From: a virus
Virus record (IMG/VR): IMGVR_UViG_3300007735_000800
Span: 32,001-96,000 of that record
Reading direction: 5' to 3' (one strand)
DNA: 64,000 nt
The notes beneath the pieces were generated by a model. That model had not been told where the DNA came from. It searched no databases and saw only the letters and a program-made list of their open reading frames with translations. Within the stretch, counting starts at the first letter, position 1. Each line of letters begins with the position of its first letter. Shown in pieces: positions 6,805 to 48,728 of the stretch. Position numbers and translations under genes: made by a program.

Positions 6805-7226
6805 AAAACTTAACAAGCAATATAATCGCCAATGGCATTAGATCTTTATTGCAGGAAAATGATGATGCATTTAAGAAAAGTCTTATAAATTGTTTGTCTT
6901 TAAAACTTAATGAATCTATAAAAGAGTCAGAAAAAGAATTTGCAATTAATTTATTAAAGTCAAAAAATCAATTGCCAGAATCAACAGACTTAAAGTATTT
7001 TATAGAATTTGTTGAAAATTATGACGATGTTTTAAATAATAAATTAAAATTAAAAAATCAAACTGTCATAAATATTAATGAATCAGATTTAAATGATCTA
7101 AAAGATTTGTTTGATTGTTTAAATTCAAAAAATCGTAAAATAATGATTTCAGAAATATTAGAATCACCACAAAAATTAAAACAAAATTTAAATTTTTATA
7201 GGAAGGCCCGAGGAATACTAAAATGA
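6801..7226 (+). CDS. Hypothetical protein, probable prohead core component (gp67/gp68 position)
   Basis: Between portal and prohead protease; ATGA overlap with the next gene; L-x-E motifs (LLQE, LNE). Confidence 0.55.
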   Translation: MKNLTSNIIANGIRSLLQENDDAFKKSLINCLSLKLNESIKESEKEFAINLLKSKNQLPESTDLKYFIEFVENYDDVLNNKLKLKNQTVININESDLNDLKDLFDCLNSKNRKIMISEILESPQKLKQNLNFYRKARGILK

Positions 7227-7384
7227 AACAAAATGTAAGACAGATTCTTAAAAGTGTAATTGAAGAAAATGCTGTAAATTTTAAAAACCAAACAAATAAA
7301 ATTTTATATTCCAAGGTTGGAGATAAATTAAAACAAGAATATGTGAATGTTTCTAGAAAATTATTTAATAATAAAGGCCAATAA
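7223..7384 (+). CDS. Small (53 aa) prohead-core-like protein, not in the supplied ORF track
   Basis: My translation: MKQNVRQILKSVIEENAVNFKNQTNKILYSKVGDKLKQEYVNVSRKLFNNKGQ. ATG overlaps the upstream TGA and its TAA abuts the gp21 ATG. Small helical protein at the usual gp67-like position. Confidence 0.65.
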   Translation: MKQNVRQILKSVIEENAVNFKNQTNKILYSKVGDKLKQEYVNVSRKLFNNKGQ

Positions 7385-9953: not shown

Positions 9954-11360
9954 ATGAATTTTCAAGACAATACGCCATATGATATTTTAACAGAGAAGTG
10001 GAATCCCGTGCTCGATCACGGCGCTCTTCCAACTATCGCTGATGATTACCGTAAGAAGGTCACTGCTGTCCTTCTTGAAAACCAAGAGCAATCAATTCGT
10101 GCTCAACACCTAACAGAAGACATGAGCTCCAATAACTTGGGAATGCCATCAAGCTTCACCAACAATGGTAGCGTTGCTGGATATGATCCAGTACTCATTT
10201 CGTTGGTTCGTCGCGCTATGCCAAATTTGATGGCATACGACATCTGTGGTGTTCAGCCAATGACCGCCCCAACTGGCCTCATTTTCGCAATGCGTGCCAA
10301 CTATGGTGGTTTCAGCTATGGTGCTACAGCTGGTTATGCTGAAGCAATGTTCCAAGAAGCCCAACCAAACTACGGTGGTTCTGGTTATACTATAGGATTG
10401 GATTACCGTGGATTTACAGCAGGCTACGGTCTCTGTGGTTCTTGCGGTCCAACCTCCGGTAACCCAACTACTAATGGAATTAGATCCTATACCGCAGCAC
10501 AATTCAGTGCTTTCCGTGGCATGTTGACCTCAACAGGTGAAGCTCTTGGTTCACCAACAGTTTTCAATCAAATGGCTTTCTCAATTGACCGTGTTGCCGT
10601 ACAAGCTCGTACACGCGCTCTAAGCAGCAACTACACAATTGAATTAGCACAAGATTTGAAAGCCGTTCACGGTCTTGATGCTGAAGCCGAACTCGCCAAC
10701 CTACTCAGCACTGAAATTCTTGCTGAAATCAACCGCGAGATCGTCCGCACCATCTACTACGTTGCTCGTAAGGGTTCTGTCCAATCAGATTTGACTGTTA
10801 CAGGTGAATATGATTTGAATTCAGATTCTGATGGTCGTTGGTCAGCTGAAAGATTCCGTGGTCTCACTTTCCAAATTGAGCGTGAGTGCAACGCAATCTC
10901 CAAGGAAACCCGTCGTGGTAAGGGCAACTTCATCATCTGCGATAGCGATACCGCAGCTGCCCTCGCCATGTCTGGCTTCATGAGCCTAAGCCCAGGAATC
11001 GCTCCACAACTCAATGTTGATGATACCCAAGGAACTTTTGCTGGTATCCTAAGTGGAAAGATTCGTGTTTATATCGATCCTTACACCCCACTCGGTGTAA
11101 ACTTCTTCTGCGCCGGCTATAAGGGCGAGTCACCATATGATGCAGGTTTGTTCTACTGCCCATACGTTCCTCTCCAAATGGTTCGTGCAGTTGATCCAAA
11201 TACCTTCCAGCCAAGAATTGCCTTCAAGACCCGTTATGGTGTCGTAGCCAACCCTTACGTCCTAAACGGAACTGCTCCAGATGGCGAAGCTTTAACTCAA
11301 GGTATCAATCAATACTACCGCTTGACTCAAGTCAAGAACCTACACGGTATGACACTCTGA
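9954..11360 (+). CDS. gp23: Major capsid protein
   Basis: LVRRAMPNLMAYDICGVQPMTAPTGLIFAMR, ELAQDLKAVHGLDAEAELANLLSTEILAEINRE, FYCPYVPLQM and FKTRYG motifs. Confidence 0.98.
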   Translation: MNFQDNTPYDILTEKWNPVLDHGALPTIADDYRKKVTAVLLENQEQSIRAQHLTEDMSSNNLGMPSSFTNNGSVAGYDPVLISLVRRAMPNLMAYDICGVQPMTAPTGLIFAMRANYGGFSYGATAGYAEAMFQEAQPNYGGSGYTIGLDYRGFTAGYGLCGSCGPTSGNPTTNGIRSYTAAQFSAFRGMLTSTGEALGSPTVFNQMAFSIDRVAVQARTRALSSNYTIELAQDLKAVHGLDAEAELANLLSTEILAEINREIVRTIYYVARKGSVQSDLTVTGEYDLNSDSDGRWSAERFRGLTFQIERECNAISKETRRGKGNFIICDSDTAAALAMSGFMSLSPGIAPQLNVDDTQGTFAGILSGKIRVYIDPYTPLGVNFFCAGYKGESPYDAGLFYCPYVPLQMVRAVDPNTFQPRIAFKTRYGVVANPYVLNGTAPDGEALTQGINQYYRLTQVKNLHGMTL

Positions 11361-12674: not shown

Positions 12675-14174
12675 TTATTTATCTTTTGGTAGCTCCATTG
12701 AGACTATCTTGTAGTCAAACTTTTCTTTTTTGTATATCTTTACACGCTCTTCAAAATGTTTGAGCACATGGTTTTTCTGTGACTTCCACGAAAGATCATC
12801 AACAATATCAAAAACCTTTAGAGTTTTTTTCTTTTCTGATACTCTAAGTCCTCTTCCTATGCTTTGCAGCAAACGAATTACCGATTTAGTAGGAGAGGCA
12901 AAAATAATATTATCAAGGTTGACAATGTTGATGCCAGCAGAAGTAGTACCAAAAGACGCAACCAAAATGGCATCTTTTTCACGATCCACGACTCTGCGGA
13001 TGTATTCTCTTGTCTCAGCTTCTGTCTTTCCAGATATAAAATATACTTTTCTATCGCATCCATCTGCCTGTATGAGATCCGCGAGTGGCTTTCCATGGAT
13101 CTCAACGTAGTTGAAGAGTATGAGTGTGTTTCCTTTTGTTTTGAGGGCAAGGTCTCTGATGAATTGATTTCTTTTTTCATTGGTTACAATCCACTTAATT
13201 TCATCTGGATACTTCTGCTTTTTTAGCAGTTGCTTCTCTTCCTCTGTATATTTAAGAATTATGCAATCTATACCAAGAGTTGCAAGCAACCCTTTTGTCA
13301 TAAGACCTTTGGTTTGTATGAACTGAACAGCTGGCCCTAAAATACCTTCTATGCTCAACCTATGTGCTTGTGTTTGTTGGAGGGTTCCGGTTGTGCCGAT
13401 CCTAAACCAAGCTTTTGATAATTTTTGTCCAATAAAATTTATTGATTCGGCCTTTGCTTGATGGCATTCATCAAAGAAAACTGCATCAAACTGTTGAAAC
13501 CATTCTTTAGGTAGCTTGTATATTGATTGCCAAGTTGAAACAACAATTTGTTTGTTGGTATCTTTATCTTCTCCAGCAAATATTTTATGTATGTATTTTT
13601 TACAAGACCAAGATTTGTCTTGAGAGCAATAATCAAAAAAATCAGATTCCATCTGATTTACCAATCCTACCGTGGGAACTAATATTAAAATTTTACGATC
13701 TGTACCGATAACCTTTTGCAGATATCGAACCAAGACGTATATTATCAAACTTTTTCCAGATCCTGTCGGAGATATTATAACCGATCTGTGATTGTTCAGG
13801 CCATGAAGTATTGCCTGTTCCTGGTGAACATGCATCTGCACATCTTTTTTTCGGACAGATACTTTCAGAGATTTGTAGAATTCCGAAAGTTCTTCCTTTG
13901 TTATGCATAAAGGGTTTTTTGTCTCTTTAATATTTATGGTGTATTTTCTATCTTCACAAAATTTTTGAAGATATGTTTTTAACCCTCTTGGGAGTGTGGA
14001 TGACAGAATATCATATAAACGAATCTTTCCATCCCACAGCCTACGTTTAAACATAGGCATATATTGCGCTCCGGGAACCATAAATGAAAAATAGTCCCTA
14101 AGTTCTTTCTTTAATGCTTGTTCTGTTTTGATGTAGTAGCGAACTTCATCAATAGATTCAACTTCAATATCCAC
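12675..14174 (-). CDS. uvsW: UvsW RNA-DNA/DNA-DNA helicase
   Basis: SPTGSGKS Walker A, DECH, GTTGTL, QSIGRGLR; N-terminal FSFMVPGAQYMP.F.RRLWDGKIRL. Confidence 0.96.
   Translation of the reverse strand: MDIEVESIDEVRYYIKTEQALKKELRDYFSFMVPGAQYMPMFKRRLWDGKIRLYDILSSTLPRGLKTYLQKFCEDRKYTINIKETKNPLCITKEELSEFYKSLKVSVRKKDVQMHVHQEQAILHGLNNHRSVIISPTGSGKSLIIYVLVRYLQKVIGTDRKILILVPTVGLVNQMESDFFDYCSQDKSWSCKKYIHKIFAGEDKDTNKQIVVSTWQSIYKLPKEWFQQFDAVFFDECHQAKAESINFIGQKLSKAWFRIGTTGTLQQTQAHRLSIEGILGPAVQFIQTKGLMTKGLLATLGIDCIILKYTEEEKQLLKKQKYPDEIKWIVTNEKRNQFIRDLALKTKGNTLILFNYVEIHGKPLADLIQADGCDRKVYFISGKTEAETREYIRRVVDREKDAILVASFGTTSAGINIVNLDNIIFASPTKSVIRLLQSIGRGLRVSEKKKTLKVFDIVDDLSWKSQKNHVLKHFEERVKIYKKEKFDYKIVSMELPKDK
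12676..12683 (-). promoter_or_regulatory. Late promoter variant (GATAAATA), minus strand
   Basis: TATTTATC on the plus strand, at the end of uvsW. Confidence 0.5.
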
Positions 14175-14178
14175 ATAA

Positions 14179-14186
14179 TATTTATG
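14179..14186 (-). promoter_or_regulatory. Late promoter (CATAAATA) upstream of uvsW
   Basis: TATTTATG on the plus strand, overlapping the uvsY stop codon. Confidence 0.55.
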
Positions 14187-14619
14187 ATATTCCGTTCATC
14201 ATTTTATTCCATTCGATGGCAGATTTAATCATAAAATTTCTGTTATTTAATGATTTAATAAACTCTTCAACCATCTTGAGTTTTACTTCAGTCACAGCCA
14301 ATTTTGATTTTAGTTCTATTACTTTTACATCTGCTTCAACAAATTGCTCAACATCGCTTTTTAGCAAAGTAAGATCCGAAGGCTCTTCCCCCCAGGCTTC
14401 CAATTCTTCTTTGGAGGCTTTACCGGTATAAATTTTCCATTTCCTCAATTTTAAAACAGCCAAGTCGTTTTGGTGTTTTGTCAAAAGTAATTTGACATCT
14501 GCAAGTATTGTTAAATACTTGGAGTGTATTTGAGGTATCTTAAGAGACTCTATACCTAACTCTGTAGAGTCTATTTGAGAGTCTTTAGTAATAAGTTCTT
14601 TAAGGTTATCTAGATTCAT
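14182..14619 (-). CDS. uvsY: UvsY recombination mediator
   Basis: DSQIDSTELGIESLKIPQIHSKY, LRKWKIYTGKA and NRNFMIKSAIEW motifs. Confidence 0.93.
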   Translation of the reverse strand: MNLDNLKELITKDSQIDSTELGIESLKIPQIHSKYLTILADVKLLLTKHQNDLAVLKLRKWKIYTGKASKEELEAWGEEPSDLTLLKSDVEQFVEADVKVIELKSKLAVTEVKLKMVEEFIKSLNNRNFMIKSAIEWNKMMNGIS

Positions 14620-14680: not shown

Positions 14681-14708
14681 TTGACAATTATATAAAGTAA
14701 TCTATAAT
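14681..14708 (+). promoter_or_regulatory. Sigma70-type promoter for the glycosylation island (TTGACA-N16-TATAAT)
   Basis: Consensus hexamers; GAGGA SD and ATG at 14726. Confidence 0.8.
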
Positions 14709-14725
14709 TTATTTGAGGACTATAC

Positions 14726-15361
14726 ATGCAGATCGACTTACGTGAAATTCCAGTTGTTTGGATAAATCTGGATTCGGCAAAAAAGAATGCTGAAACCATG
14801 GAAGAAAGATTTAAAAAGTTTGGATTTAAAAATACACATAGAAAATCCGGACTAATAATTCCACCTCCACCCAATACAGATAAAAGCATTGCTCATTTTA
14901 GGGGATGTGGACAATCACATATAGACATTTTAGATGATGAAAATTATTCAACACCACTTCTTGTTTTGGAGGATGATGTTGAGTTTATTGAAAATTTTAA
15001 TCCTGTAATAGATATACCAGAAGAATCTGATGGAATTTATCTTGGTGTATCAAGTGGAAATCTTTTTTACAAATCATGTAGGAAAGATCAAAATTACCTT
15101 CGAATAGCAGGAATATTGGCTGCACATGCCATATTGTATGTAACCCCTAGATTCAGAGCAGCGATGTCTGAAGCTGGTAAATATTGTTTATATGAAATAA
15201 ATCAACCATGGGATGTTGGAACTGCAGCTATACAAGTAAATTATAACGTGTATACACCCAATATACCACAAATATTTCAATGTGATGATAGAGAAAATGC
15301 CAATAAATGGCAAAGACTCACGGATAAACCTCTGGAAGATAGAAAGTTTATTTTTCCATGA
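14726..15361 (+). CDS. Glycosyltransferase, GT25-like
   Basis: WINLD start motif, GCGQSH and LVLEDD (DxD-like). Confidence 0.7.
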   Translation: MQIDLREIPVVWINLDSAKKNAETMEERFKKFGFKNTHRKSGLIIPPPPNTDKSIAHFRGCGQSHIDILDDENYSTPLLVLEDDVEFIENFNPVIDIPEESDGIYLGVSSGNLFYKSCRKDQNYLRIAGILAAHAILYVTPRFRAAMSEAGKYCLYEINQPWDVGTAAIQVNYNVYTPNIPQIFQCDDRENANKWQRLTDKPLEDRKFIFP

Positions 15362-16185
15362 TAACATTTAATTCACTGGGCAGATTCGGAAAACTTGGAA
15401 ACCAGATGTTTCAGTACGCAGCATTAATTGGTCTAGCAGAAAAAAATGGATATGAGTACGGAATTCCATATTCCAACAGGGAATGGGGAATTAGTGCATG
15501 GTATGATTGTAAATTATTTTTACCGGATTTATTTAACATTACTGCCAAAGACTCAAGCTCAATTGACAACAAACACAAATTTAGATATGATCAATTAATT
15601 TATAATGAGAAGTTTTTTTCATTGCCGGATAATATAGATATTTTAGGGTATTATCAAAGTGAAAAATATTTTACACACTGCAAAGATAAAATTTTAAAAG
15701 AGTTTTCTTTTAAAAATGATGATTTGGTAAACAAAACAAAAGAAGAATTTGATAACAAAAAATTTATAGGTCTTCACATTAGACGTGGTGATTATTTAAA
15801 AATACCGCACATACATAAAACATGTAATCAAGAATATTACATTAAATCAATAAATAAAATTTTAGATAATGTAAAAGATGAACATTTTTTATATGTTTTT
15901 AGTGATGACATAGAATGGTGTAAACACAATTTAAATTTTAATATTAAAACTTTTTTTGATGATTCTCCAGAATCTGAAGAAAAATACTATACAAACCAGG
16001 AAAAAACTTTAATAAAAATGAGTTTATGCAATCATTTTATTTGCGGTAATAGTTCTTTTAGTTGGTGGGGATCTTATCTTATCAAAAATTCAAATAAAAT
16101 TGTCTGCATGCCAAATCAATGGTTTGGAGAAGGTATAAAAGAATCTTGGTCTGACATTTATTATGATGGGGTTTCAATAATATGA
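15358..16185 (+). CDS. Alpha-1,2-fucosyl/colitosyltransferase, GT11
   Basis: GKLGNQMFQYA, GYYQSEKYF, LHIRRGDY, FSDDIEWCK and NSSFSWWG, the GT11 signature motifs. Confidence 0.9.
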   Translation: MITFNSLGRFGKLGNQMFQYAALIGLAEKNGYEYGIPYSNREWGISAWYDCKLFLPDLFNITAKDSSSIDNKHKFRYDQLIYNEKFFSLPDNIDILGYYQSEKYFTHCKDKILKEFSFKNDDLVNKTKEEFDNKKFIGLHIRRGDYLKIPHIHKTCNQEYYIKSINKILDNVKDEHFLYVFSDDIEWCKHNLNFNIKTFFDDSPESEEKYYTNQEKTLIKMSLCNHFICGNSSFSWWGSYLIKNSNKIVCMPNQWFGEGIKESWSDIYYDGVSII

Positions 16186-17003
16186 ATAAGCTTCACATCA
16201 TAACAGATGCATTTAACAACAGTTCTTGCTTAAATTATCTTCCAAAAACTTTTAAATGGGTATTCAATACATATCCTTCTGACAATGGTCCAGTTGTATA
16301 TTTTGATTCTTCAATATTTACTAAAATAAATGATGAATATTCTGGAACAAGATATGGTTGGTTAGGAGAATCTTCAGAAATTATTGCACCATTGATAATG
16401 GGAGTTACATCAAATAAAGATGTATTAAAATTAAGATATAAAAAAATTTTTACAAATGACAGAAGAATTGTCAGTATAGATCCAACTTTTTTTGTTTATA
16501 ATCCCCCAGCATCAAACATGCCGTGGGTAAAAGAAAGAGAAGTATTTACAAAAACAAAATTGTGTTCATACATCACAAGCTTCAAGCAATTCACGTCAGG
16601 TCACATTAAAAGAATGGAATTGTTTGAAAAATTAAAAGATAATCCAAAATTCAAAGATCATATATTTGGAAGAGATTATAGATTTATTGAAAACAAAATT
16701 GATGGGCTTAAGGATTATATGTTTTCTATAGTTGTAGAAAATAGTATCTATCCAAAGTATTATACAGAAAAAATTACTGATTGTTTTGCCACAGGAACAA
16801 TACCAATATATTATGGGGATGAGTCTATATGTGAAGATTTTGATAGATCTGGAATTATATTTTTAAATGAACTTGAATCATTTGATGATTTAAATGAAGA
16901 GTTATATAAAAATAAATTAAGTAGTGCAAAAAATAATTTAATAAAATTAAACTCCATGAAATCAGCTGATGATTACATTTACGAAAACATATTAAATGAT
17001 TAA
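16182..17003 (+). CDS. GT10-like (alpha-1,3/4-fucosyltransferase-like) glycosyltransferase
   Basis: YMFSIVVENS....YYTEKITDCFATGTIPIYYG matches the alpha-1,3-FucT motif. Confidence 0.75.
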   Translation: MNKLHIITDAFNNSSCLNYLPKTFKWVFNTYPSDNGPVVYFDSSIFTKINDEYSGTRYGWLGESSEIIAPLIMGVTSNKDVLKLRYKKIFTNDRRIVSIDPTFFVYNPPASNMPWVKEREVFTKTKLCSYITSFKQFTSGHIKRMELFEKLKDNPKFKDHIFGRDYRFIENKIDGLKDYMFSIVVENSIYPKYYTEKITDCFATGTIPIYYGDESICEDFDRSGIIFLNELESFDDLNEELYKNKLSSAKNNLIKLNSMKSADDYIYENILND

Positions 17004-17865
17004 ATTACATATATCAAATTTTTGGCCATCGTTTGATTACACTAATAATTTTTTTGTAGAATTATTTAAAGATATTTACACACAAGATATAATTTTTACA
17101 AATATCAACGATTGCAATTTATGTTTGATTGCGGATTGCAATATTCCACCAGAATTAGATAAAACAAAAACAAAAACCATTTGTTTTACCGGAGAACCAA
17201 AAAAAATAGATTTTTCTTTATGTGATTATTATCTTACTTTTGATCCCGATTCCGACAATAATATAAGACTGCCTTTATGGTATATTTACATTAATTTTTA
17301 TAATTTAAATAATCAAAAAAATCCTATTCCAGCAGTAAAACCAAGTGAGATTGACGATAATATCTGGCTAAATAAATTAAAAAATAATTTTTGTATAGCT
17401 CCTTTTTCTGTTGCTACTAAAGCTAGAATTGAATTTTATAATTTATTAAATTACTATAAACCAACATATGGATTTGGCCTACCTTTTGGTAACGGAGATC
17501 AAGATAGAAATGAATTAAAAAAATATGACGTAATTTCTAATTTTAAATTTTGCATGACTTTTGAAAATACTTGCAAACAGGGATATGTTACTGAAAAAAT
17601 TTTACAAGCTAAAACAGCCGGATGTATCCCAATATATTGGGGAGATGAATATGTTACAAAAGATTTTAATCCAAATAGTTTTATATATGTAAATAAATTT
17701 AAATCTTTTAATGAATGCTTAGAGTATGTAAAATACGTAGATAACAATTTTGAAGAATACAATAAATATTGTAAAGAACCATTATTTTTAAATGATATTG
17801 AAACAAATTTAAATATAATAAAAACAAAAATTAAAAATAAATTAGCCGATAAGATAGGAAAATAA
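16996..17865 (+). CDS. GT10 alpha-1,3/4-fucosyltransferase-like glycosyltransferase
   Basis: FKFCMTFENT..QGYVTEKILQAKTAGCIPIYWG and FNPNSFI motifs. Confidence 0.85.
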   Translation: MIKLHISNFWPSFDYTNNFFVELFKDIYTQDIIFTNINDCNLCLIADCNIPPELDKTKTKTICFTGEPKKIDFSLCDYYLTFDPDSDNNIRLPLWYIYINFYNLNNQKNPIPAVKPSEIDDNIWLNKLKNNFCIAPFSVATKARIEFYNLLNYYKPTYGFGLPFGNGDQDRNELKKYDVISNFKFCMTFENTCKQGYVTEKILQAKTAGCIPIYWGDEYVTKDFNPNSFIYVNKFKSFNECLEYVKYVDNNFEEYNKYCKEPLFLNDIETNLNIIKTKIKNKLADKIGK

Positions 17866-17870
17866 TTATT

Positions 17871-18401
17871 ATGGAACATTTTTATAAAAATTTGGGAGAA
17901 GATTGGTTTTCATATTCTGAATTATACAATAATATTGTAAAAACACACGGAAGTGGAAGTCATTTTGTTGAAGTTGGATCTTGGAAGGGGAGAAGTTCTG
18001 CTTATATGGCAGTAGAAATTAATAATTCTGGTAAAAATATTAAATTTGATTGTGTTGATATTTGGGAAAAATCAGAAGAATACAGTGAAGAAAATTTATA
18101 TGAACAGTTTTTAACAAATATTAAACCAGTAAAACATATTATAAATCCAATTAAAATGAAATCAGTGGATGCTTCTAAATTATATGAAGATAACAGTTTA
18201 GATTTTGTTTTTATTGATGCTTGTCATTTTTATGAATGTGTAAAAGAGGATTTAGAAGCTTGGTATCCAAAAGTAAAATTAAATGGAATTATTGCTGGTC
18301 ACGATTTTCATTCAGAAAATATTAGAAAAGCAGTAGAAGAACAATTTCCAGAATTTTATTTTAGTCAACAACAAAATATTTGGTTGAAAACAAAAAAATA
18401 A
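17871..18401 (+). CDS. Class I SAM-dependent methyltransferase (Methyltransf_24-like)
   Basis: VEVGSWKGRS, LDFVFIDA.H.YE.VKEDL.AW and GIIAGHD motifs. Confidence 0.88.
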   Translation: MEHFYKNLGEDWFSYSELYNNIVKTHGSGSHFVEVGSWKGRSSAYMAVEINNSGKNIKFDCVDIWEKSEEYSEENLYEQFLTNIKPVKHIINPIKMKSVDASKLYEDNSLDFVFIDACHFYECVKEDLEAWYPKVKLNGIIAGHDFHSENIRKAVEEQFPEFYFSQQQNIWLKTKK

Positions 18402-18421
18402 AAAATTATGTCTTAAATAAT

Positions 18422-19153
18422 ATGATTAAAACAAAAATTTTAAGTATACCAAATTCAAATAGAAAAGACGATATAAAAAAACAAATGGAAAAAAACCATA
18501 TTTGTTTTGATTTTTTTGATGCAATTACTCCAAAAGATTTTTATTTAACACAAGAAAAAAATATTACAAAAATAATATTAAAAGACTCAATATATTTTAT
18601 AAATTCTGAAGTTGTAAATCCAATTATAAAAAGAAATTACATGAGAGTTGGAGAGGTTGCATGTGCAATATCACATATTAAAATATGTGAAAACCTTTTA
18701 AATAATGAAGAAGATGATTATTATCTAGTATTAGAAGACGATACAGTATGTTTAAAAGATATTGAAAAACTTTATTTACTTAAAAATTACATTAAAAATA
18801 ATATTAATAAACAAGATTTAATCTATCTTTTAAATTATTCTCCATCTTTTCAACAAAGAAAACCCTGGTATTATGATTTATGTGAAAAAATAGAAGATCA
18901 TTTTTATGTTTTAAAAAACAATCCAAGTATCTTTTTAGAAGCAACTAATGCATTTATTATTAATAAAAATTTTTGTAAAAAATATTTAGAAATAGTGAAA
19001 AATATCGGACTGATTGGTCCAGCAGATAGCGCGTTAATACATATGTTTGCCAATAAACATATATCTGTTTCAATAACAGATTTAGATTATTTTTCTCCCA
19101 TATTTGAAAATAATCCAAGTTTTGTACATCAAACAGAAAAAATATCAATATAA
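18422..19153 (+). CDS. Glycosyltransferase, GT25 family
   Basis: FDFFDAI, GEVACAISH and YYLVLEDD motifs; ATG at 18422 is the likely start. Confidence 0.8.
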   Translation: MIKTKILSIPNSNRKDDIKKQMEKNHICFDFFDAITPKDFYLTQEKNITKIILKDSIYFINSEVVNPIIKRNYMRVGEVACAISHIKICENLLNNEEDDYYLVLEDDTVCLKDIEKLYLLKNYIKNNINKQDLIYLLNYSPSFQQRKPWYYDLCEKIEDHFYVLKNNPSIFLEATNAFIINKNFCKKYLEIVKNIGLIGPADSALIHMFANKHISVSITDLDYFSPIFENNPSFVHQTEKISI

Positions 19154-19193
19154 TATTTGATTTATTTAAAATATTATTAATAATTCATCTTCA

Positions 19194-20108
19194 ATGAAGA
19201 ACATACATTTTTATAATTTATTTCATAATGGTGATTTACATTATTCTAGAGAATTTGTAAAAGATATTATTAATAAAGTAAAAAATAAATATAAAATTGG
19301 TTATTATATTAAAAAATTAGAATCATCATCATTAAATGATATTGATATTGAATTTAAAAATGTAGATAAAAATAATATTTTGTCTACATTTTTAATTTCA
19401 AATTGCCAAAAAATTATAAAAGAAGAACAAAATGATATTTTTGTAAATACATGGATAGGTACAAATAATGCCAAATATGTAAGCAAACATAAATGTTCTT
19501 TAAAAAGTAATTATTTGCTTTATAAAGATATTTTTGCTTTTTTAGATATACCAATAGATTCAATTTCAAATTATATACCATCTATAGATTATTCAAAATT
19601 TAAAATAGAATCTATAGATAAATTTTTTAATAACAATAAACAAAATTTTTATTGCCTAATATCAAATGGACCGGTACACTCTGGTCAAGCTAATTGTTTT
19701 GATTTATCAAATATTATAAACATTCTTAGTAAAAAATATTTAAATATTGGTTTTATTTTAACCCATAAAACAAATTTGGAACATTCATCAAATATTTTTT
19801 ATACAAATGATATAATAGGTTTACAAAAAGATTTAAATGAAATTTCATATTTATCACTAAAATGTAAAATTATTTTTGGTAGGGCTAGTGGGCCTTATTG
19901 CTTCTCACATGTTAAAGAGAACATGTTTGATATAGATAAAACAATAATAGCCAATTCAAATTTTATAGAAGAGGGTCTATGGGCAATGGAAGATGATTTT
20001 GAAAACAAAAAACATTGTAAACAAATTTGGTTGAATACAGCTTCTGATGAAGAATTAATGAATATAATTCAAAATGAAATAGATGTTAAATTGGAAAGTA
20101 AAATATGA
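19194..20108 (+). CDS. Hypothetical protein of the glycosylation island (possible GT-B fold)
   Basis: 304-aa ORF in the operon; HNGDLHYSR and IFGRASGPYCF segments loosely recall GT9-like proteins. Confidence 0.45.
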   Translation: MKNIHFYNLFHNGDLHYSREFVKDIINKVKNKYKIGYYIKKLESSSLNDIDIEFKNVDKNNILSTFLISNCQKIIKEEQNDIFVNTWIGTNNAKYVSKHKCSLKSNYLLYKDIFAFLDIPIDSISNYIPSIDYSKFKIESIDKFFNNNKQNFYCLISNGPVHSGQANCFDLSNIINILSKKYLNIGFILTHKTNLEHSSNIFYTNDIIGLQKDLNEISYLSLKCKIIFGRASGPYCFSHVKENMFDIDKTIIANSNFIEEGLWAMEDDFENKKHCKQIWLNTASDEELMNIIQNEIDVKLESKI

Positions 20109-20470
20109 GCATATCAAATAATATTGAACAAATAATAAAAGAAACAGTCTCTAAAACCTTAGAGAAAAAAAACATACCCGAAAATCCATCTGATTATTAT
20201 TTTACAGACAATATAGCTGAGACTATCGAAAAACTCTGCATACTTCATATAAGAACATGGTTTTTAGAGGACATGGCTGGAGTTTGTAAAACAGATTCTG
20301 AGTTAGCAGATATAAAAAGAAAAGTAGACATTTGCTTCAAACAAAAAAGGCCAGCTTTAATTCAAGCAATAAATAGAATGGTAGATGCTGCTATATTAGA
20401 TGGAAAAAGTTTAAAAGAAGATTCTGTAAAAATTTATAAGGGATTTGTTAATGATTCAGCTACCAATTAA
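20105..20470 (+). CDS. Small helical protein, DUF4254-like
   Basis: DNIAETIEKLCILHIRTWFLED...KRKVD..F.QKRPALIQAIN pattern. Confidence 0.5.
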   Translation: MSISNNIEQIIKETVSKTLEKKNIPENPSDYYFTDNIAETIEKLCILHIRTWFLEDMAGVCKTDSELADIKRKVDICFKQKRPALIQAINRMVDAAILDGKSLKEDSVKIYKGFVNDSATN

Positions 20471-21620
20471 ACTAGTTAAAGATACGATTTCATCGTCAGA
20501 AATAGATTTATTGTGTGACTGGTTAAAAACCTATCCACAATTAACTAAAGGCAAATTAACTGAACAATTTGAAGCAGAGTTTGCAAATTGGACTGGTACA
20601 AAATATTCTGTTTTTGTTAATTCAGGATCATCAGCAAACTTAGCTATGATCTATGCATTAAAAGTATCAAATAAACTAAAAAATGAAAAAATTGTTGTCC
20701 CATGTGTTTCTTGGGTTACCACGGTAAGTCCAATTATTCAATTTGGAATGAAACCAATTTTATGTGAAACAGATAAAGATAGTTTGGGCATTGACATAAA
20801 TCATTTTGAAAAAATTTGTAAAGAAGAATCTCCCGCCTGTTTGTGCCTAGTACATGTTTTAGGATTTCCAAACAAGATGAAAGAGATTAAAGAAATTTGT
20901 AAAAAATACGATGTAATACTATTAGAAGATTCTTGTGAAAGTGTTGGTACAGAATATGAAGGAAAAAAAACGGGTACCTTTGGGCTGATGTCTTCTTTTT
21001 CAACATATTTTGGTCATCATTTTTCTACAATAGAAGGTGGTTTTATTTGCACTGATGACTTTGAATTATATGAAGTATTAAAATCAATCAGATCGCATGG
21101 TTGGAGTAGAGATCTATCTGAACAAACTAAAAACCGCCTGCAGTCAGAGCATCAAATTGATGATTTCAGAAACCTATACACTTTTTATTTTCCCGGTTTT
21201 AATTTAAGAGCAACAGATGTTCAAGCTTTTTTGGGATTGAATCAATTAAAGTCTTTGAATGAAAAAAATAATAAAAGATATAAAAATTTATTGACATATC
21301 ACTCAAATATAAAAAATAGTTATTGGAAAATTAAGTTTAATAATTATGTAAGTAATTTTGCTTATCCAATAATACACCCATTAAAGAATAAAATTGTAGA
21401 AAAATTAAAAGAAAATCAAATAGAGTGCAGACCATTAATTTGTGGTAGTATGTCCAGACAACCATTTTTTTATCAAAGGTATGGTATTGTTGAACACAAT
21501 TTTTCAGATATAATTCATGATTATGGATTATATTTACCCAATAATCCAGATATGACCGAAGAAGAAGTATTGTATATTTCAAATACAGTTAACTCAATAA
21601 CAAAAAATATAAATGAATAA
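20451..21620 (+). CDS. colD: PLP-dependent DegT-family enzyme, ColD-like GDP-4-keto-6-deoxymannose 3-dehydratase
   Basis: NSGSSANL, LLEDSCES and GFNLR motifs. The active-site segment STYFGHHFSTIEGG has His where aminotransferases have the Schiff-base Lys. Confidence 0.72.
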   Translation: MIQLPIKLVKDTISSSEIDLLCDWLKTYPQLTKGKLTEQFEAEFANWTGTKYSVFVNSGSSANLAMIYALKVSNKLKNEKIVVPCVSWVTTVSPIIQFGMKPILCETDKDSLGIDINHFEKICKEESPACLCLVHVLGFPNKMKEIKEICKKYDVILLEDSCESVGTEYEGKKTGTFGLMSSFSTYFGHHFSTIEGGFICTDDFELYEVLKSIRSHGWSRDLSEQTKNRLQSEHQIDDFRNLYTFYFPGFNLRATDVQAFLGLNQLKSLNEKNNKRYKNLLTYHSNIKNSYWKIKFNNYVSNFAYPIIHPLKNKIVEKLKENQIECRPLICGSMSRQPFFYQRYGIVEHNFSDIIHDYGLYLPNNPDMTEEEVLYISNTVNSITKNINE

Positions 21621-22557
21621 AAACTCTAAAATATTTGTTGCGGGACATAAAGGACTTGTTGGTTCTGCTTTGATGAGAAAACTCCATGAAAATGGATTTA
21701 CAAACTTAATAACAAAAACTAAAGATGAATTGGATTTGAGAAATCAAATTGACGTTAAGTATTTCTTCGATAAAGAGAGGCCAGATTACGTATTTCTAAG
21801 TGCCGCAAAGGTCGGAGGAATTGGCTGGAATAAGAATTGTCCAGCAGAATTTATATACGATAATTTGCAAATACAAAACAATATAATTCACAGCGCGTAT
21901 TTAAATGGAGTCAAAAAACTTTTGTTTCTTGGATCGGCGTGCATTTATCCCAAGATTACACCTCAACCAATTAAAGAAGAATATTTGATGACGGATCAGC
22001 TTGAACCAACAAATGAAGGATATGCTTTATCAAAAATTGTTGGTTTAAAAATGTGTCAATACTACACAAAACAATATGGATTCAATGCCATATCATTGAT
22101 GCCAGCTAATTTGTATGGAATCAATGATAATTTTAATGTAGAAAAATGCCACGTTATACCAGCATTGATACGTAAATTTATTGATGCAAAAGAAAATAAT
22201 GAATCATCTGTGGTGTGTTTTGGTGATGGTACTCCGACACGAGAATTTTTGTTTTCTGACGATCTTGCTGATGCATGTTTATTCTTAATGAAAAATTATA
22301 ATTCTCCAGAAATAATTAACGTTGGTTCAGGTATGGATGTAACCATAAAAGAACTAGCGGAAACAATAAAAAGTAAAATAGGATTTAATGGAGAAATTAT
22401 TTGGGATACATCAAAACCAAATGGAACTTCACTGAGAAAAATATGTAATAAAAAAATAAATTCTATGGGCTGGAACGCCACAACCAAACTAGAAGATGGA
22501 ATATCGAAAACAATAGATTGGTATTTGTCAAATAGAAAAAATTATTATAGAAATTAA
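21613..22557 (+). CDS. fcl: GDP-L-fucose synthase / ColC-type epimerase-reductase
   Basis: GHKGLVGS, AAKVGGI, GSACIYP, YALSK, NLYG.ND and HVIPALI motifs. Confidence 0.93.
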   Translation: MNKNSKIFVAGHKGLVGSALMRKLHENGFTNLITKTKDELDLRNQIDVKYFFDKERPDYVFLSAAKVGGIGWNKNCPAEFIYDNLQIQNNIIHSAYLNGVKKLLFLGSACIYPKITPQPIKEEYLMTDQLEPTNEGYALSKIVGLKMCQYYTKQYGFNAISLMPANLYGINDNFNVEKCHVIPALIRKFIDAKENNESSVVCFGDGTPTREFLFSDDLADACLFLMKNYNSPEIINVGSGMDVTIKELAETIKSKIGFNGEIIWDTSKPNGTSLRKICNKKINSMGWNATTKLEDGISKTIDWYLSNRKNYYRN

Positions 22558-22585
22558 TTGAATACTTTAAAATATAAAATATACT
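22558..22585 (+). promoter_or_regulatory. Sigma70-type promoter, leaderless geometry (TTGAAT-N16-TATACT)
   Basis: ATG of gmd lies 6 nt after the -10 hexamer; AT-rich context lowers specificity. Confidence 0.55.
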
Positions 22586-22591
22586 ACTAAT

Positions 22592-23572
22592 ATGAATAAA
22601 AAAGCTTTAATTATTGGTGCAAACGGCCAAGATGCGTCATATTTGGCTGAATTATTAATTGAAAAACAATATGTAGTTCACGGTACAATCAGAAGAAATT
22701 CTGTACCAGAATCTCAGACAACCAGAATTCAACATTTGCACGATAATAATTTAATTACCCTGCATTATGCAGATCTTACGGACCCAATTAGCATTGAAAG
22801 CGTAATTCAAAAAATACAACCAGATGAAATATATCATTTAGCTGCACAGTCTCATGTTCAAATTTCTTTTGATTTACCTCACTATACTTTAGAAGTAAAT
22901 GGTTGTGGAACGCTGTCTGTATTAGAAGCAGTCAGGCGGTTTTCACCACATTCTAAAGTTTACCATGCAGCAACATCTGAGATGTTTGGAAATTCAAAAG
23001 ACCCAGATGGTTACCAGAGAGAAACTACACCAATGGTTCCGGTGAGCCCATATGGATGCGCTAAACTATATGCACATACTTTATGCAGAAATTATAGCCA
23101 GGCTTATAATATTTTTGCTTGCTCTGGAATTCTTTTTAATCACGAATCTCCAAGAAGAGGGATAAACTTTGTTACAAATAAAGTAGCAAATCAAGCAGTT
23201 AAAATTAAATTAGGTTTGGCGGACAAATTAGTTCTTGGGAATCTTGAAGCCAAACGTGATTGGGGGCATGCAAAGGATTATGTAGAAGCAATGTGGCTTA
23301 TGTTACAAAAACCAACTCCAGAAAGTTATGTTATTGCTACTGGAGAAACTAGAACTGTAAGAGAAATGACACTGTACATTTTTAATAAATTAAATTTAAA
23401 TTTTGACAAATATGTGTCTACAGATGAAAAATATTGTAGACCAGAGGAATTACACTATTTAAAAGGTGATGCAACAAAAGCTTATACAGAATTAGGATGG
23501 AAACCAAAAATAAAATTTGAAACTATGATGGATGAAATGGTAGATTTTTGGATAAAAAATTATAAAAAATAA
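22592..23572 (+). CDS. gmd: GDP-mannose 4,6-dehydratase
   Basis: GANGQDASYLAELL, LAAQSHV.ISF, ATSEMFG, SPYGCAKLY, GILFNHESPRRG.NFVT.K and RDWGHAKDYV motifs. Confidence 0.96.
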   Translation: MNKKALIIGANGQDASYLAELLIEKQYVVHGTIRRNSVPESQTTRIQHLHDNNLITLHYADLTDPISIESVIQKIQPDEIYHLAAQSHVQISFDLPHYTLEVNGCGTLSVLEAVRRFSPHSKVYHAATSEMFGNSKDPDGYQRETTPMVPVSPYGCAKLYAHTLCRNYSQAYNIFACSGILFNHESPRRGINFVTNKVANQAVKIKLGLADKLVLGNLEAKRDWGHAKDYVEAMWLMLQKPTPESYVIATGETRTVREMTLYIFNKLNLNFDKYVSTDEKYCRPEELHYLKGDATKAYTELGWKPKIKFETMMDEMVDFWIKNYKK

Positions 23573-23581
23573 TTAATAACT

Positions 23582-24250
23582 ATGAATATTAAACAATTTA
23601 TATTTGACAATTCACCAATAAATAAATGTGGGCAAAGATGTCCAATTATTTTAGAAGCTGGAACAGCTCATGGGTTTGATACGGTTGAATTTGCTAAAAC
23701 ATATCCAGATGGTGTAATTTATGGAATTGAACCTATTACAGCGATGTATGATCATACATACATGTTAACAAAATCTTTTAATAATGTAAAACTATTTAAA
23801 AAAGCATTATCCGATAAAAATGGCAGCGCGGAAATGTATGTTTCATATTATTATGGTAGCCCAACAGGTTCTAGTTCGATACTGGAACCAAAAGACCATG
23901 TACATTTACATCCGGAAATAACATTTAACAATAAAGAAATTGTTGAAACAATTACGCTCGATGATTTTGTGGAAGAACAAAACATATCACATATTGATTT
24001 TATGTGGTTAGATTTGCAGGGATATGAACCAATTGTATTAAATAAATCAATAAAAACTCTTAAAAAGAGTAGGTATTTACACTGCGAAGTTACTATGATT
24101 GAATATTATAAAGATAATATAAAATATCCAGAGTTTAAAAAATTTTTAAATGATAATAATTTTGAAGTTTTAGATGAAAGTGAAATTTTTACTCCAAATG
24201 GAATTAAAAAAGCTGGAAATGTTTTGTTTAAAAATAAATCATATAATTAA
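23582..24250 (+). CDS. FkbM-family methyltransferase
   Basis: LEAGTAHG, GIEP, TITLDDF and IDFMWLDLQGYE motifs. Confidence 0.85.
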   Translation: MNIKQFIFDNSPINKCGQRCPIILEAGTAHGFDTVEFAKTYPDGVIYGIEPITAMYDHTYMLTKSFNNVKLFKKALSDKNGSAEMYVSYYYGSPTGSSSILEPKDHVHLHPEITFNNKEIVETITLDDFVEEQNISHIDFMWLDLQGYEPIVLNKSIKTLKKSRYLHCEVTMIEYYKDNIKYPEFKKFLNDNNFEVLDESEIFTPNGIKKAGNVLFKNKSYN

Positions 24251-24261
24251 GGTAAAATAAA

Positions 24262-24897
24262 ATGTATTATTCTCAGTATAATCAAGATAAAATTTTAAAT
24301 ACTAGAATTTTTAAAAATAAAAAAAATGGATTTTTTATAGATATAGGTGCACATGATGGAATAACATATTCCAATTCATATTTTTTTGAAAAAGAATTGG
24401 AATGGACAGGTATATGTGTGGAACCAAATCCATCCGTATTTAAACAATTACAAAAAAATAGAAAATGTACTTTAATAAACAAACCTGCTTGGATAGAAAA
24501 TAAAAAAGAAGTATTTTTTACAATTACAGGACATTCTGAAATGTTGAGTGGATTATACGACACATATCATCCAAAACATCTAAAAAGAATAAAGTCGGAA
24601 ATAGATGATTTAAATCAAAAATTTGAAATCACTGAAGTTGAATGTTTTGATTTAAATGAATATTTAATAAAAAATTCTATAAATAATATTGATTTTATTA
24701 GTTTAGACACCGAAGGAAGTGAATTTAAAATTTTAAAAAATATTGATTTTTCTCAAATTTCTATAAAAGTTATTGTAATAGAAATACCATATGATCAAAA
24801 TGAAGTAATAAATTTTTTAGAAAATAAAAATTTTTATCTATATGCATATGCTCAAAATTCAGATTTAATTTTTGTTAATAACAGCTATAAATTTTAA
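24262..24897 (+). CDS. FkbM-family methyltransferase
   Basis: YSQYNQD, FFIDIGAHDG...SNS, GICVEPNP and IDFISLDTEGSE motifs. Confidence 0.88.
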   Translation: MYYSQYNQDKILNTRIFKNKKNGFFIDIGAHDGITYSNSYFFEKELEWTGICVEPNPSVFKQLQKNRKCTLINKPAWIENKKEVFFTITGHSEMLSGLYDTYHPKHLKRIKSEIDDLNQKFEITEVECFDLNEYLIKNSINNIDFISLDTEGSEFKILKNIDFSQISIKVIVIEIPYDQNEVINFLENKNFYLYAYAQNSDLIFVNNSYKF

Positions 24898-31219: not shown

Positions 31220-32461
31220 ATGTACAATCTAACTCTTAGCATGATCGTAAAAAACGAGGCACCAAATATTCTACGGTGCTTGGAATCTGTAGCCCCATTT
31301 ATTGATTATTATGTAATATGTGATACTGGGTCAACAGACAATACCAAAGAGATAATTAAAAATTTCTTTGACAGTAAAAACATACCAGGTGAAATATTGG
31401 ACCATGAATGGAAACACTTTGGTCATAATAGAACAGAGGCACTTAAAGCTTGTTATGGAAAAACTAAATGGGCCATGATGATTGATGCGGATGATTACCT
31501 ATCCGGAAAGTTACCAGTAGAAAAATTTGATGATAATTTGGATGGATATGTTGTAAAAATTACAAGAGGGCCATTTGAGTGGTATAGGGCACAATTGTTT
31601 AATTTAGGAAAGAAAAATTGGTGGTATGAAGAACCACTTCATGAATATGCTATATGTGAACAACCTATAAATGTCGTTAGACTTGAAGGTGATTACAGCT
31701 GGGAAGTAAGAACAGAAGGATGCAGATCTAGAGAATCCGGTGGGGACGATAGAGAAAAATACAGAAAAGATTATTATTTCCTTAAAAAATATCTTGAGGA
31801 CCATCCAGATAATGTAAGAACCCAGTTTTATCTTGCACAATCTGCATTTGATGCTCATATGTTTGATGTAGCTGAAATAGAATATGAAAAAAGAGCAAAA
31901 ATGGGAGGATGGGTTGAAGAGGTATTCTATTCTTGGATGAGAGTTGGAATATCCCGGGAATTGCAGAACAAACCTCTCCCAGAAGTTATAGACGCATTCT
32001 TATTAGCACATGAAACTCTGCCAGTAAGAGCGGAACCATTCTGGCAAATGTCGTGCATCTATAGAAAACACAATAGACCAAGAAATGCATATGTAATGGC
32101 ATCTCATGCACTGCAAATACCAATACCACAAGACAATATTCTTTTCGTGGACAAGGGAAATTATACTTGGGGAATTTTGGACGAAATTGCAACAACGGCA
32201 GCACAGGTAGGAAAATTCCATGTTGGCCTTGCTGCATGTGATAAACTTCTTTCGGAATCACATTTGCCACCGGATCAGAGAGAAAGAGTTATGAGTAACA
32301 GAAATCTATATGTTGATGTTGTTTCTAAAATGAATGCTGAATTGATAAAGCAACAGCAAGAAATTTTAGAAAAACAGCAAAAGGCTATGGAATCGGCTGA
32401 AAAAAGATCAAAGCAAACTACTCTTAACATAGATTTATCAAAGCCACCCATTACGTTATAA
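31220..32461 (+). CDS. GT2-family glycosyltransferase with C-terminal TPR-like repeats
   Basis: LSMIVKNEA, ICDTGSTDNT, FG.NRT.AL, MIDAD, HE motif, FYLAQS and helical repeats. Confidence 0.85.
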   Translation: MYNLTLSMIVKNEAPNILRCLESVAPFIDYYVICDTGSTDNTKEIIKNFFDSKNIPGEILDHEWKHFGHNRTEALKACYGKTKWAMMIDADDYLSGKLPVEKFDDNLDGYVVKITRGPFEWYRAQLFNLGKKNWWYEEPLHEYAICEQPINVVRLEGDYSWEVRTEGCRSRESGGDDREKYRKDYYFLKKYLEDHPDNVRTQFYLAQSAFDAHMFDVAEIEYEKRAKMGGWVEEVFYSWMRVGISRELQNKPLPEVIDAFLLAHETLPVRAEPFWQMSCIYRKHNRPRNAYVMASHALQIPIPQDNILFVDKGNYTWGILDEIATTAAQVGKFHVGLAACDKLLSESHLPPDQRERVMSNRNLYVDVVSKMNAELIKQQQEILEKQQKAMESAEKRSKQTTLNIDLSKPPITL

Positions 32462-32466
32462 TAATC

Positions 32467-32474
32467 TCTAAATA
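32467..32474 (+). promoter_or_regulatory. Late promoter variant (TCTAAATA) upstream of the fibre module
   Basis: In the intergenic gap. Confidence 0.5.
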
Positions 32475-32500
32475 ATTAATAATGCATTAAAACATTATTA

Positions 32501-32911
32501 ATGGAGATTTTTATGGCCGAAAACTACGACATAATTGTTGTAAAAGGCGATACAGCTAGATGGTCTTCCTTCTTTTATAGCCTAACAGGAGGAAATACCT
32601 TCGATTTTAGTGGATGTACCATGTACATGCAAGTAAGATCTGGATATTATGCTGAACCCCTTTTGGCCGGCTACACACAATACATTTCCGCAGGAGCCTC
32701 TTTAGATTATCCTAAAGGATTAACCGGAGGAATATCTGCAGGTGCTACTGGAGGAACTGTATATTTTTGCATAGGTTCTTCTCAGTCAAATCAACTCACA
32801 GCAGATAGAATGTGCAAATATGATGTAAAAGTAGAACATCCCAGTTTAATGGACAAATACACAATCATTAGAGGAAATGTTCAAGTATTGGGCAACGTAA
32901 CTAACATATAA
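32501..32911 (+). CDS. Virion accessory / fibre-adaptor-like protein
   Basis: YDI.V.KGDT, D.SG.T.YMQVR, YDVKV and I.RG.V pattern typical of BppU-like/adaptor domains. Confidence 0.5.
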
Positions 32912-36158: not shown

Positions 36159-36161
36159 ATA
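36154..36161 (+). promoter_or_regulatory. T4-type late promoter (TATAAATA)
   Basis: Overlaps the upstream stop, 7 nt before the ATG at 36169. Confidence 0.7.
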
Positions 36162-36168
36162 TTAAGAC

Positions 36169-48497: not shown

Positions 48498-48728
48498 ATG
48501 GACGAAAACGAAGACTTATCAGAGGAAGACATTTTAAAGGCCAGCGAAGCTTATTTAATGTTCGTCCATAGATTTAGTGAATATGTAAAAGAAATGGACC
48601 CAAAGCTCTGGGAAAGAGCCAGAGAATATGCAGCTGATTTTACAAAAATACCAGGTGTAAAGATTGAACTTGTAGATGAGGATATTAATGATGACACAGA
48701 CGGAAACCACAAAAACGGATCAGACTAA
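48498..48728 (+). CDS. Small acidic hypothetical protein
   Basis: 76-aa ORF between primase and thyX. Confidence 0.55.
   Translation: MDENEDLSEEDILKASEAYLMFVHRFSEYVKEMDPKLWERAREYAADFTKIPGVKIELVDEDINDDTDGNHKNGSD

Follow-up and report, generated by a model that had tools for sequence, protein, structure and literature searches.

The locus described here, an island of sugar-related genes in the genome of an uncultured phage, raises the question of what glycan its enzymes would build and to what that glycan would be attached. It occupies positions 14726–24897 of the window, by which we mean the whole stretch of 64,000 nucleotides that was analysed (all coordinates below refer to it unless ascribed to a relative); the window corresponds to bases 32001–96000 of the viral record IMGVR_UViG_3300007735_000800, which is 126,277 bases long and ~70% complete by CheckV. 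The island comprises 13 open reading frames (ORFs, o1–o13), all on the + strand, which either overlap by 4–26 nt or are separated by gaps of at most 40 nt, and is placed between uvsY and gp55/gp47/gp46; the layout is that of the 13-gene co-directional block delimited by a first-pass annotation made from the sequence alone. We interpret the block as an allele of a hypervariable glycan locus that keeps a fixed site in the genomes of related aquatic T4-like phages, a clade without cultured members. That its products synthesize deoxysugars, transfer them and methylate the result we consider very probable, while the complete explanation that we prefer, which includes structural proteins of the virion as the target, is held only tentatively.

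Three adjoining genes are predicted to make the donor sugars, and their matches to families and to solved relatives sustain the GDP-deoxysugar synthesis (gmd, ColD-like and fcl/colC-like) that the first-pass annotation had proposed for them:

20445..21620, + strand: o9 (391 aa), predicted ColD-type, pyridoxamine phosphate-dependent GDP-4-keto-6-deoxymannose 3-dehydratase of the DegT family
21613..22557, + strand: o10 (314 aa), GDP-L-fucose synthase / GDP-L-colitose synthase type
22592..23572, + strand: o11 (326 aa), predicted GDP-mannose 4,6-dehydratase (Gmd)

The pathway would begin with o11, which matches PF16363 (2.1e-116) and scores 393 bits on TIGR01472, slightly below the equivalog cut-off of 415, and which would convert host GDP-mannose to GDP-4-keto-6-deoxymannose. 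From this intermediate an Fcl-type enzyme such as o10 (437 bits on the NCBIfam model NF047922, equivalog cut-off 500; 318 bits with Escherichia coli Fcl) could make GDP-L-fucose; a ColC role for o10 is putative, and if it has that activity o9 and o10 together would yield GDP-L-colitose. The closest solved relative of o9 is ColD (2gms, 223 bits), with perosamine synthases far behind at ~99 bits, and a His-His pair in o9 aligns with the S-H-H of ColD, in which His replaces the Schiff-base Lys. This diagnostic His is present in 88 of the 89 o9 (DegT) homologues of the related viral loci that we fetched (referred to below by L numbers), even in those that are 30–36% identical to o9, and its retention suggests that the module is defined by a 3-deoxygenating dehydratase and, in consequence, by a 3,6-dideoxyhexose. 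Some relatives that bear the core described below (L019–L024, L064) have no o10 homologue. A literature search returned no report of a phage-encoded ColD or colitose route, and the route predicted here would be new for a phage. No ManC-type nucleotidyltransferase was found in the 126-kb record, that is, in ~70% of a genome (the scope of all record-wide searches below), so that GDP-mannose must be supplied by the host, as must UDP-sugars and S-adenosylmethionine (SAM). To call the island self-contained, as had been done, was therefore an overstatement.

Transfer and methylation would be carried out by the following products, together with o7, which is considered separately:

14726..15361, + strand: o1 (211 aa), probable GT-A glycosyltransferase, weakly GT25-like
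15358..16185, + strand: o2 (275 aa), GT11 (alpha1,2-fucosyl/colitosyl-transferase family)
16182..17003, + strand: o3 (273 aa), GT10-type fucosyltransferase
16996..17865, + strand: o4 (289 aa), GT10, alpha1,3-fucosyltransferase-like
17871..18401, + strand: o5 (176 aa), Methyltransf_24 (TylF-like) SAM methyltransferase (PF13578, 2.9e-19)
18380..19153, + strand: o6 (257 aa), GT25
23582..24250, + strand: o12 (222 aa), FkbM-family methyltransferase (PF05050, 1.4e-17; TIGR01444)
24262..24897, + strand: o13 (211 aa), FkbM-family methyltransferase (PF05050, 2.7e-20)

Family matches are clear for o2 (PF01531, 3.9e-33, 115 bits; phrog_2644, 1.3e-65), for o6 (PF01755, 4.4e-14, 53 bits where the cut-off is 24) and for o4 (PF00852, 2.7e-19, 70 bits; FucT_N, 9.4e-8), whose best solved relative is the Helicobacter pylori alpha1,3-fucosyltransferase 2nzw (E 1.4e-24). 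The second GT10-type protein, o3, matches PF00852 at 1.3e-8 (35 bits) and is 67–76% identical among relatives. For o1 the Pfam GT25 score of 15 bits is under the cut-off, which a paralogue in L003 barely clears; o1 also matches phrog_24091 (6.5e-37) and phrog_2835, a 'glucosyltransferase' family (3.9e-5), and an hhalign comparison of the o1 and o6 families gave a weak match across an EDD motif (E 0.0015). The island is thus predicted to hold five or six soluble transferases, namely a GT25, the GT25-like o1, the GT9-like GT-B protein o7, a GT11 and two GT10 enzymes. The earlier list (two GT25, a GT11, two GT10-like and possibly one more) stands for the GT11, the two GT10 proteins and o6, and a further transferase can be recognized by fold in o7; the second GT25, o1, is weak. 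The three SAM methyltransferases on that list are those recognized by Pfam in o5, o12 and o13. We envisage that the GT25-type enzymes would add hexose, that the GT11 and GT10 enzymes would add alpha1,2- and alpha1,3/4-linked fucose or colitose, that o7 would add a further sugar and that the three methyltransferases would O-methylate the product, building up in the cytoplasm a short, branched, O-methylated oligosaccharide capped with fucose or colitose.

Two products had been listed as unknown proteins in the first-pass annotation, and both proved to belong to the most conserved part of the locus:

19194..20108, + strand: o7 (304 aa), predicted GT-B fold transferase, core gene, no Pfam family
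20105..20470, + strand: o8 (121 aa), helical, probable divergent DUF4254 protein, core gene adjoining the dehydratase gene

The former can now be upgraded to a GT-B transferase. A model of o7 folded with five homologues (predicted local distance difference test score, pLDDT, 79; predicted template modelling score 0.82) matches the GT9 structure 3tov with a Z-score of 14.5 (root-mean-square deviation 4.7, 257 residues aligned), WaaF with 12.9, WaaC with 11.8 and the protein heptosyltransferase TibC with 11.3. The resemblance to the GT9 structures (3tov, WaaF, WaaC) is one of fold, at 7–14% identity and with no Pfam match, and by its model we describe o7 as a GT-B protein closest to GT9. Its family comprises 220 metagenomic clusters, none of them named and none with a Pfam domain, and among 50,697 GenBank phages its matches are confined to three huge-phage records. 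The latter, o8, scores 14.7 bits on DUF4254 (PF14063, cut-off 27); some homologues 60–66% identical to it carry PF14063, and the o8 profile finds a bona fide member of DUF4254 (155 bits), by which we class o8 as a probable distant DUF4254 member.

A search of related phages and bacteria, which the first-pass annotation had proposed as a check, located the locus in many viral relatives. The o8 protein recurs in 277 protein clusters and at 213 viral loci, with identities of 58–75%; an Atlas search returned virus-only clusters, all unnamed, and the 50,697 GenBank phages gave no match. On the bacterial side, o8 was found in 185,579 species genomes on only three contigs, all from metagenome-assembled genomes (MAGs), and the sole long one of these carries o7-o8-ColD-Gmd plus a gp46-like gene. 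In about 75 of the 80 viral loci fetched, o8 either separates o7 from a DegT-family gene or adjoins the two, in arrangements of which four can be distinguished:

arrangement 1: ...o7-o8-ColD... between uvsY and gp55
arrangement 2: ...o7-o8-ColD... between regA and a GT2 gene
arrangement 3: Gmd-Fcl-DegT-o8-o7-GT10
arrangement 4: minimal o7-o8-ColD between gp55 and gp47 (L064, L068, L070)

On these gene neighbourhoods o7, o8 and the His-type dehydratase look like a conserved, virus-restricted core, which we believe to be new. Domains like o8 also occur in fusion proteins, each known from a single metagenomic representative, in which the partner is a CTP_transf_3 cytidylyltransferase (P0421), a GNAT acetyltransferase (P0456) or a GIY-YIG nuclease (P0505). 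The GIY-YIG fusion is probably a gene-call artefact, and as single cases the fusions give a hint of nucleotide-sugar chemistry. A fold search with o8 was uninformative for this helical protein (poor model, pLDDT 62; best Z 6.4), and the literature on DUF4254 offered nothing useful for its function. A profile search of the PDB returned bromodomain matches only (E 0.07–1.5), which we took to be chance.

The window is, by its gene content, part of the genome of a T4-like myovirus. gp23 lies at ~9954–11360, the minus-strand genes for UvsW (12675–14174) and UvsY (14182–14619) precede the island, and a gp55-like sigma factor, gp47, gp46, gp45, gp44, gp62 and RegA are encoded 3' of it. UvsW is only 43–47% identical to its counterparts in Methylophilales phage Melnitz, pelagimyophage HTVC008M and T4-like cyanophages, and megablast searches of the GenBank phages with the island and the flanking replication genes gave no match, which places the phage in an uncultured lineage. 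ColD homologues 67–78% identical to o9 were found on 11 viral contigs, in 10 of which the island occupies the same slot between uvsY and gp55. Among these close relatives o1, both GT10 proteins, o8, ColD, Fcl and Gmd are 50–90% identical. The GT11 protein o2, by comparison, is 35–42% identical in most syntenic relatives, yet 70% identical in L076, a pattern indicating allele replacement; the gene at the position of o6 is merely 23–26% identical, and neither o12 nor o13 has a close orthologue among the relatives. The genes neighbouring the exchanged GT11 and GT25 positions remain 55–90% identical. When the sample was widened to 79 contigs with a gp47 60–92% identical, nearly all had Gmd-like, short-chain dehydrogenase/reductase (SDR), glycosyltransferase or methyltransferase genes before gp55, in very different sets, and the gap between uvsY and gp55 measured 6.4–8.6 kb as against 10.3 kb here. 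GC content is 26.7% in the island, with values of 20–21% in o6, o7 and o13, and 39.5% elsewhere in the record. Conserved flanks, low GC and exchanged contents are, at least by analogy, what characterizes O-antigen loci of bacteria. The likeness to such a locus in the first-pass annotation accordingly holds for the sugar-nucleotide genes, the transferases, the low GC and the allelic variety, and it fails for initiation, flippase, polymerase and ligase.

Several relatives have further genes of interest in or near the slot. L013 (3373–5587) encodes an SIS isomerase, a GHMP kinase and a HAD-cytidylyltransferase, together a heptose-nucleotide route, and has the GT9-like o7 as well, which fits a role for o7 as heptosyltransferase in some alleles. 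In L004 (7392–9999) and L008 (7391–10004) a split transketolase (N and pyrimidine/C parts) and an SDR gene are inserted between o8 and ColD, suggesting two-carbon branching of the 4-keto-3,6-dideoxy intermediate to give a yersiniose-like branched sugar; L004 also has a FUT8/NodZ-like gene. The island of L003 includes, besides a GT11 and an extra SDR, a GT6 gene at 6576–7283 (E 1e-46), GT6 being the family of the histo-blood-group A/B transferases; the predicted GT6 and GT11 enzymes could jointly produce antigens of the A/B type. For cyanophage P-SSM2, GT6 genes have been published previously (PMC3516806). L104, L109, L112, L118 and others have an additional Gmd-like gene (49–50% identical) between gp55 and gp47. 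This interval is the place of the DNA alpha-glucosyltransferase gene (a-gt) in T4. The seemingly 'empty' slot of L138 (750–9394) holds an unrelated cassette comprising an NTP-transferase, a GT2, a Methyltransf_24-like gene, a RuBisCO-like protein (PF00016, 6e-36), a DHBP synthase (3.9e-64) and a transaldolase-like gene, which would amount to sugar or C4-unit chemistry unusual for a phage.

The head of the island carries a perfect promoter:

14681..14708, + strand: sigma-70 consensus promoter, TTGACA-16-TATAAT, 12/12 match, 18 nt before the o1 start codon

This is the single occurrence of the perfect consensus in the 64-kb window, where 0.1 would be expected by chance, and the identical motif stands just before the o1 homologue in L007–L012. 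A consensus sigma-70 promoter in this position points to early expression, and the island is probably transcribed by the host polymerase as one operon, with a predicted start at ~14715. Allelic variety at a fixed slot combined with a conserved early promoter has, we believe, not been described previously. The T4-type late motif TATAAATA occurs 10–30 nt before ORF starts (window 2740, 8837, 9918, 36154 and 51561), that of gp23 included, and these copies look like genuine T4-type late promoters. At the island head the motif is absent, and its sole nearby copy, at 24678, lies inside o13, 274 nt before gp55.

A candidate for the enzyme that would prime a protein acceptor is encoded outside the island, 6 kb downstream of it and after regA:

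31220..32461, + strand: GT2, candidate protein-priming transferase (PF00535, 3.5e-15)

Its top solved relatives are GmaR (3.5e-10), SunS (7e-7) and a ThuS-like protein (1.8e-4), with ordinary polysaccharide GT2 enzymes appearing only at E 5e-4. GmaR is the flagellin O-GlcNAc transferase of Listeria, and SunS and ThuS-like proteins are peptide glycosyltransferases. A homologue of this GT2 (61–84% identical) is present in every relative whose contig reaches that far, at times in two copies, and its family numbers more than 1000 clusters. In L013/L023, L046 and L078 a sugar island lies directly between regA and the GT2 gene. We infer a link between the island and the GmaR/SunS-like GT2, which would also be new.

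The GT2 gene opens a block (31220–38945) that continues with a 136-aa ORF, a Gly-X-Lys-rich protein of 670 aa with collagen repeats (32911–34923), a pair of large ORFs and a protein with a ConA-like lectin domain; a late motif TATAAATA immediately precedes the ORF at 36169. Members of the clade share this block, which is flanked by regA on one side and by the DNA-polymerase region on the other. GT25 is also the family of the collagen hydroxylysine galactosyltransferases. The idea that a GT25 enzyme acts on the fibre protein with its many Gly-X-Lys triplets was dropped, as no PF13640-type 2OG-Fe(II) oxygenase was found in the record, other oxygenase families not having been searched.

What, then, would the glycan be attached to? 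In the explanation that we prefer, the acceptor would be a phage structural protein, probably a fibre or capsid protein primed by the GmaR/SunS-like GT2, and the end result would be a variable glycan coat on the virion. Virion proteins are favoured because the core seems to be virus-specific, because all of the enzymes are soluble and because a protein-type GT2 is fixed beside the fibre genes and sometimes beside the island. No membrane helix is predicted in any of the 13 island proteins, and the record has no ORF with at least four helices, in keeping with the first-pass statement that flippase, polymerase and ligase are missing. It had been argued from this lack of export genes that the target is the virion and not host lipopolysaccharide (LPS), a conclusion that does not follow. 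Enzymes of the GT25, GT9-like and GT10/GT11 types extend lipooligosaccharide (LOS) from the cytoplasmic side of the membrane, with lipid A-core or a carrier lipid of the host as the anchor, and with host MsbA, Wzx or WaaL to export the product, a phage taking the LOS route needs no export genes of its own. The earlier interpretation as a whole consequently keeps its enzymology and its absence of export genes and loses both its self-containment and its exclusion of LPS, while its target remains a proposal. Remodelling of the host envelope is an explanation that we regard as a strong rival, though a somewhat less likely one than the virion: the soluble transferases would extend the host lipid A-core, or a unit linked to a carrier lipid, at the inner membrane face, MsbA, Wzx, WaaL and Lpt would export it, and the resulting methylated surface glycan, capped with fucose or colitose, would block adsorption of competing phages or of progeny. 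Much of the evidence that speaks for this explanation weighs at the same time against a virion target. The GT25 protein o6, the GT9-like fold of o7 and the GT10 and GT11 enzymes belong to the classic LPS, LOS and Lewis-antigen families, which require no polymerase; the operon head has an early-type promoter, which suits the timing of host take-over, and no late motif; and low GC and allele swapping recall O-antigen loci. Similar islands of cyanophages and pelagimyophages have, moreover, been read as changing the host surface (PMC9602691; PMC7029224). Three further points temper the virion explanation, namely that all of the arrangements found have the cassette within the early replication module, away from the structural genes, that the ColC activity of o10 is only putative and that a tetratricopeptide repeat (TPR) was not found in the GT2 (Pfam, E up to 1), a 67%-identical homologue of which is named 'TPR repeat protein' in one source. 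For a borrowed LPS pathway, on the other hand, it would be odd that the most conserved genes, o7 and o8, have no bacterial counterparts in the 185,579 species genomes beyond the three MAG contigs. Nor does the record encode a lipid-linked initiating enzyme (no Bac_transf match was found in it), and the phage looks lytic and T4-like; we know of no LPS conversion by a lytic T4-like phage.

Two other acceptors carry less weight. The glycan might be put on a host pilus, flagellin or S-layer protein, or on a soluble or lipid small molecule, and flagellin or pilin of the host could indeed be served by soluble enzymes together with a GmaR-like GT2. Nothing specific points to such targets, however, and the fixed position of the GT2 beside fibre genes of the phage speaks against them; we judge them improbable. 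Still harder to credit is hypermodification of the phage DNA, in which the transferases would glycosylate a modified base and thereby evade restriction, as modelled by the alpha- and beta-glucosyltransferases of T4 and the arabinosyl-5-hydroxycytosine system of RB69. The cassette does lie within the replication module, the minimal core of L064, L068 and L070 occupies the gp55-gp47 interval, the a-gt position of T4, and phage transferases can put multi-sugar chains on DNA according to PMC13326640 and to Pyle 2024, the latter as reported in a citing paper. Against this, the record has ThyX only, with no thymidylate-synthase-homologue hydroxylase/hydroxymethylase (PF00303) found in it, no island protein matches the T4 AGT or BGT families in Pfam, and donors of the fucose or colitose type together with three O-methyltransferases have, to our knowledge, no precedent in DNA modification. 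The ThyX gene lies at 48676–49422 (PF02511, 152 bits) and no ThyA-family gene accompanies it, as is the case in many marine T4-like phages.

The locus sharpens the question of the target, since it combines a fixed slot of O-antigen-like variety with a small core that appears confined to viruses, donors of the fucose/colitose type and a candidate priming GT2 near the fibre genes. A glycan on the virion would mean that abundant lake and ocean phages wear serotype-like coats, with a bearing on adsorption, grazing and the stickiness of particles; a glycan on the host would mean that a T4-like phage of lytic appearance converts the surface of its host. Whichever holds, colitosyl- and fucosyl-transferases as well as sugar O-methyltransferases could be drawn from the locus. 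We may speculate, as an unlikely extension, that the uvsY-gp55 slot is a phage 'serotype locus' and that the o7-o8-dehydratase core represents a widespread, undescribed viral glycosylation system organized around a 3,6-dideoxyhexose, which would coat virions with the help of the GT2 and whose glycans would be under diversifying selection.

Comparable systems are known from both cells and viruses. The synthesis of Lewis antigens in H. pylori and of LOS in Haemophilus and Neisseria likewise uses GT10, GT11 and GT25 enzymes in the cytoplasm without a dedicated polymerase; there the acceptor is the cell's own lipid-linked molecule, whereas here a phage acceptor is proposed. The colitose O-antigen loci of the E. 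coli O55/O111 type contain gmd-colD-colC with manB/manC, wzx and wzy. The island has in common with them the trio of Gmd, His-type ColD and an Fcl-like enzyme, GT11-type transferases, low GC and allele swapping, and it differs in lacking manB/manC, an initiating transferase, wzx, wzy and waaL and in adding the virus-restricted o7 and o8. A virion target has precedents: in chlorovirus PBCV-1, cytosolic sugar-nucleotide enzymes, glycosyltransferases and methyltransferases of viral origin decorate the capsid proteins without a lipid carrier. Virion glycosylation is also described for mycobacteriophages (Freeman 2023, as cited in PMC12619734). The mycobacteriophage transferase genes stand beside structural genes, unlike those of the island, and chloroviruses and mycobacteriophages belong to lineages other than that of this phage.

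Islands of sugar genes have probably been noted ever since the first cyanophage genomes, and we found in the literature no demonstration of what those of aquatic T4-like phages glycosylate. Their presence in such phages is well documented (PMC9602691, PMC7029224). Pelagimyophages, some of them from fresh water, carry LPS-type sugar genes in hypervariable regions, which were read as changing the host O-chain (Zaragoza-Solas et al. 2020, PMC7029224); these genes lie mostly in a tail-fibre 'host recognition cluster' in which GT8 is dominant, whereas the present island lies in a replication-module slot and is characterized by GT10, GT11, GT25 and the ColD core. Other close parallels are the 'LPS / cell-wall' islands of the T4-like cyanophages S-SCSM1 (ORF113–135), Synechococcus phage ACG-2014f (gp223–235) and P-SSM2, the function of which was not tested in that study (PMC9602691). 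Like the island, they unite Gmd, Fcl, a DegT-family protein, GT11 or other fucosyltransferases, more glycosyltransferases and a methyltransferase in a co-directional cluster with no export genes; unlike it, they occupy another genomic slot, and o7 and o8 occur in no GenBank phage apart from the three huge-phage records with o7. In ACG-2014f the genes for Gmd, Fcl, DegT, GT11 and methyltransferase follow one another consecutively, and its DegT protein is merely 35% identical to o9.

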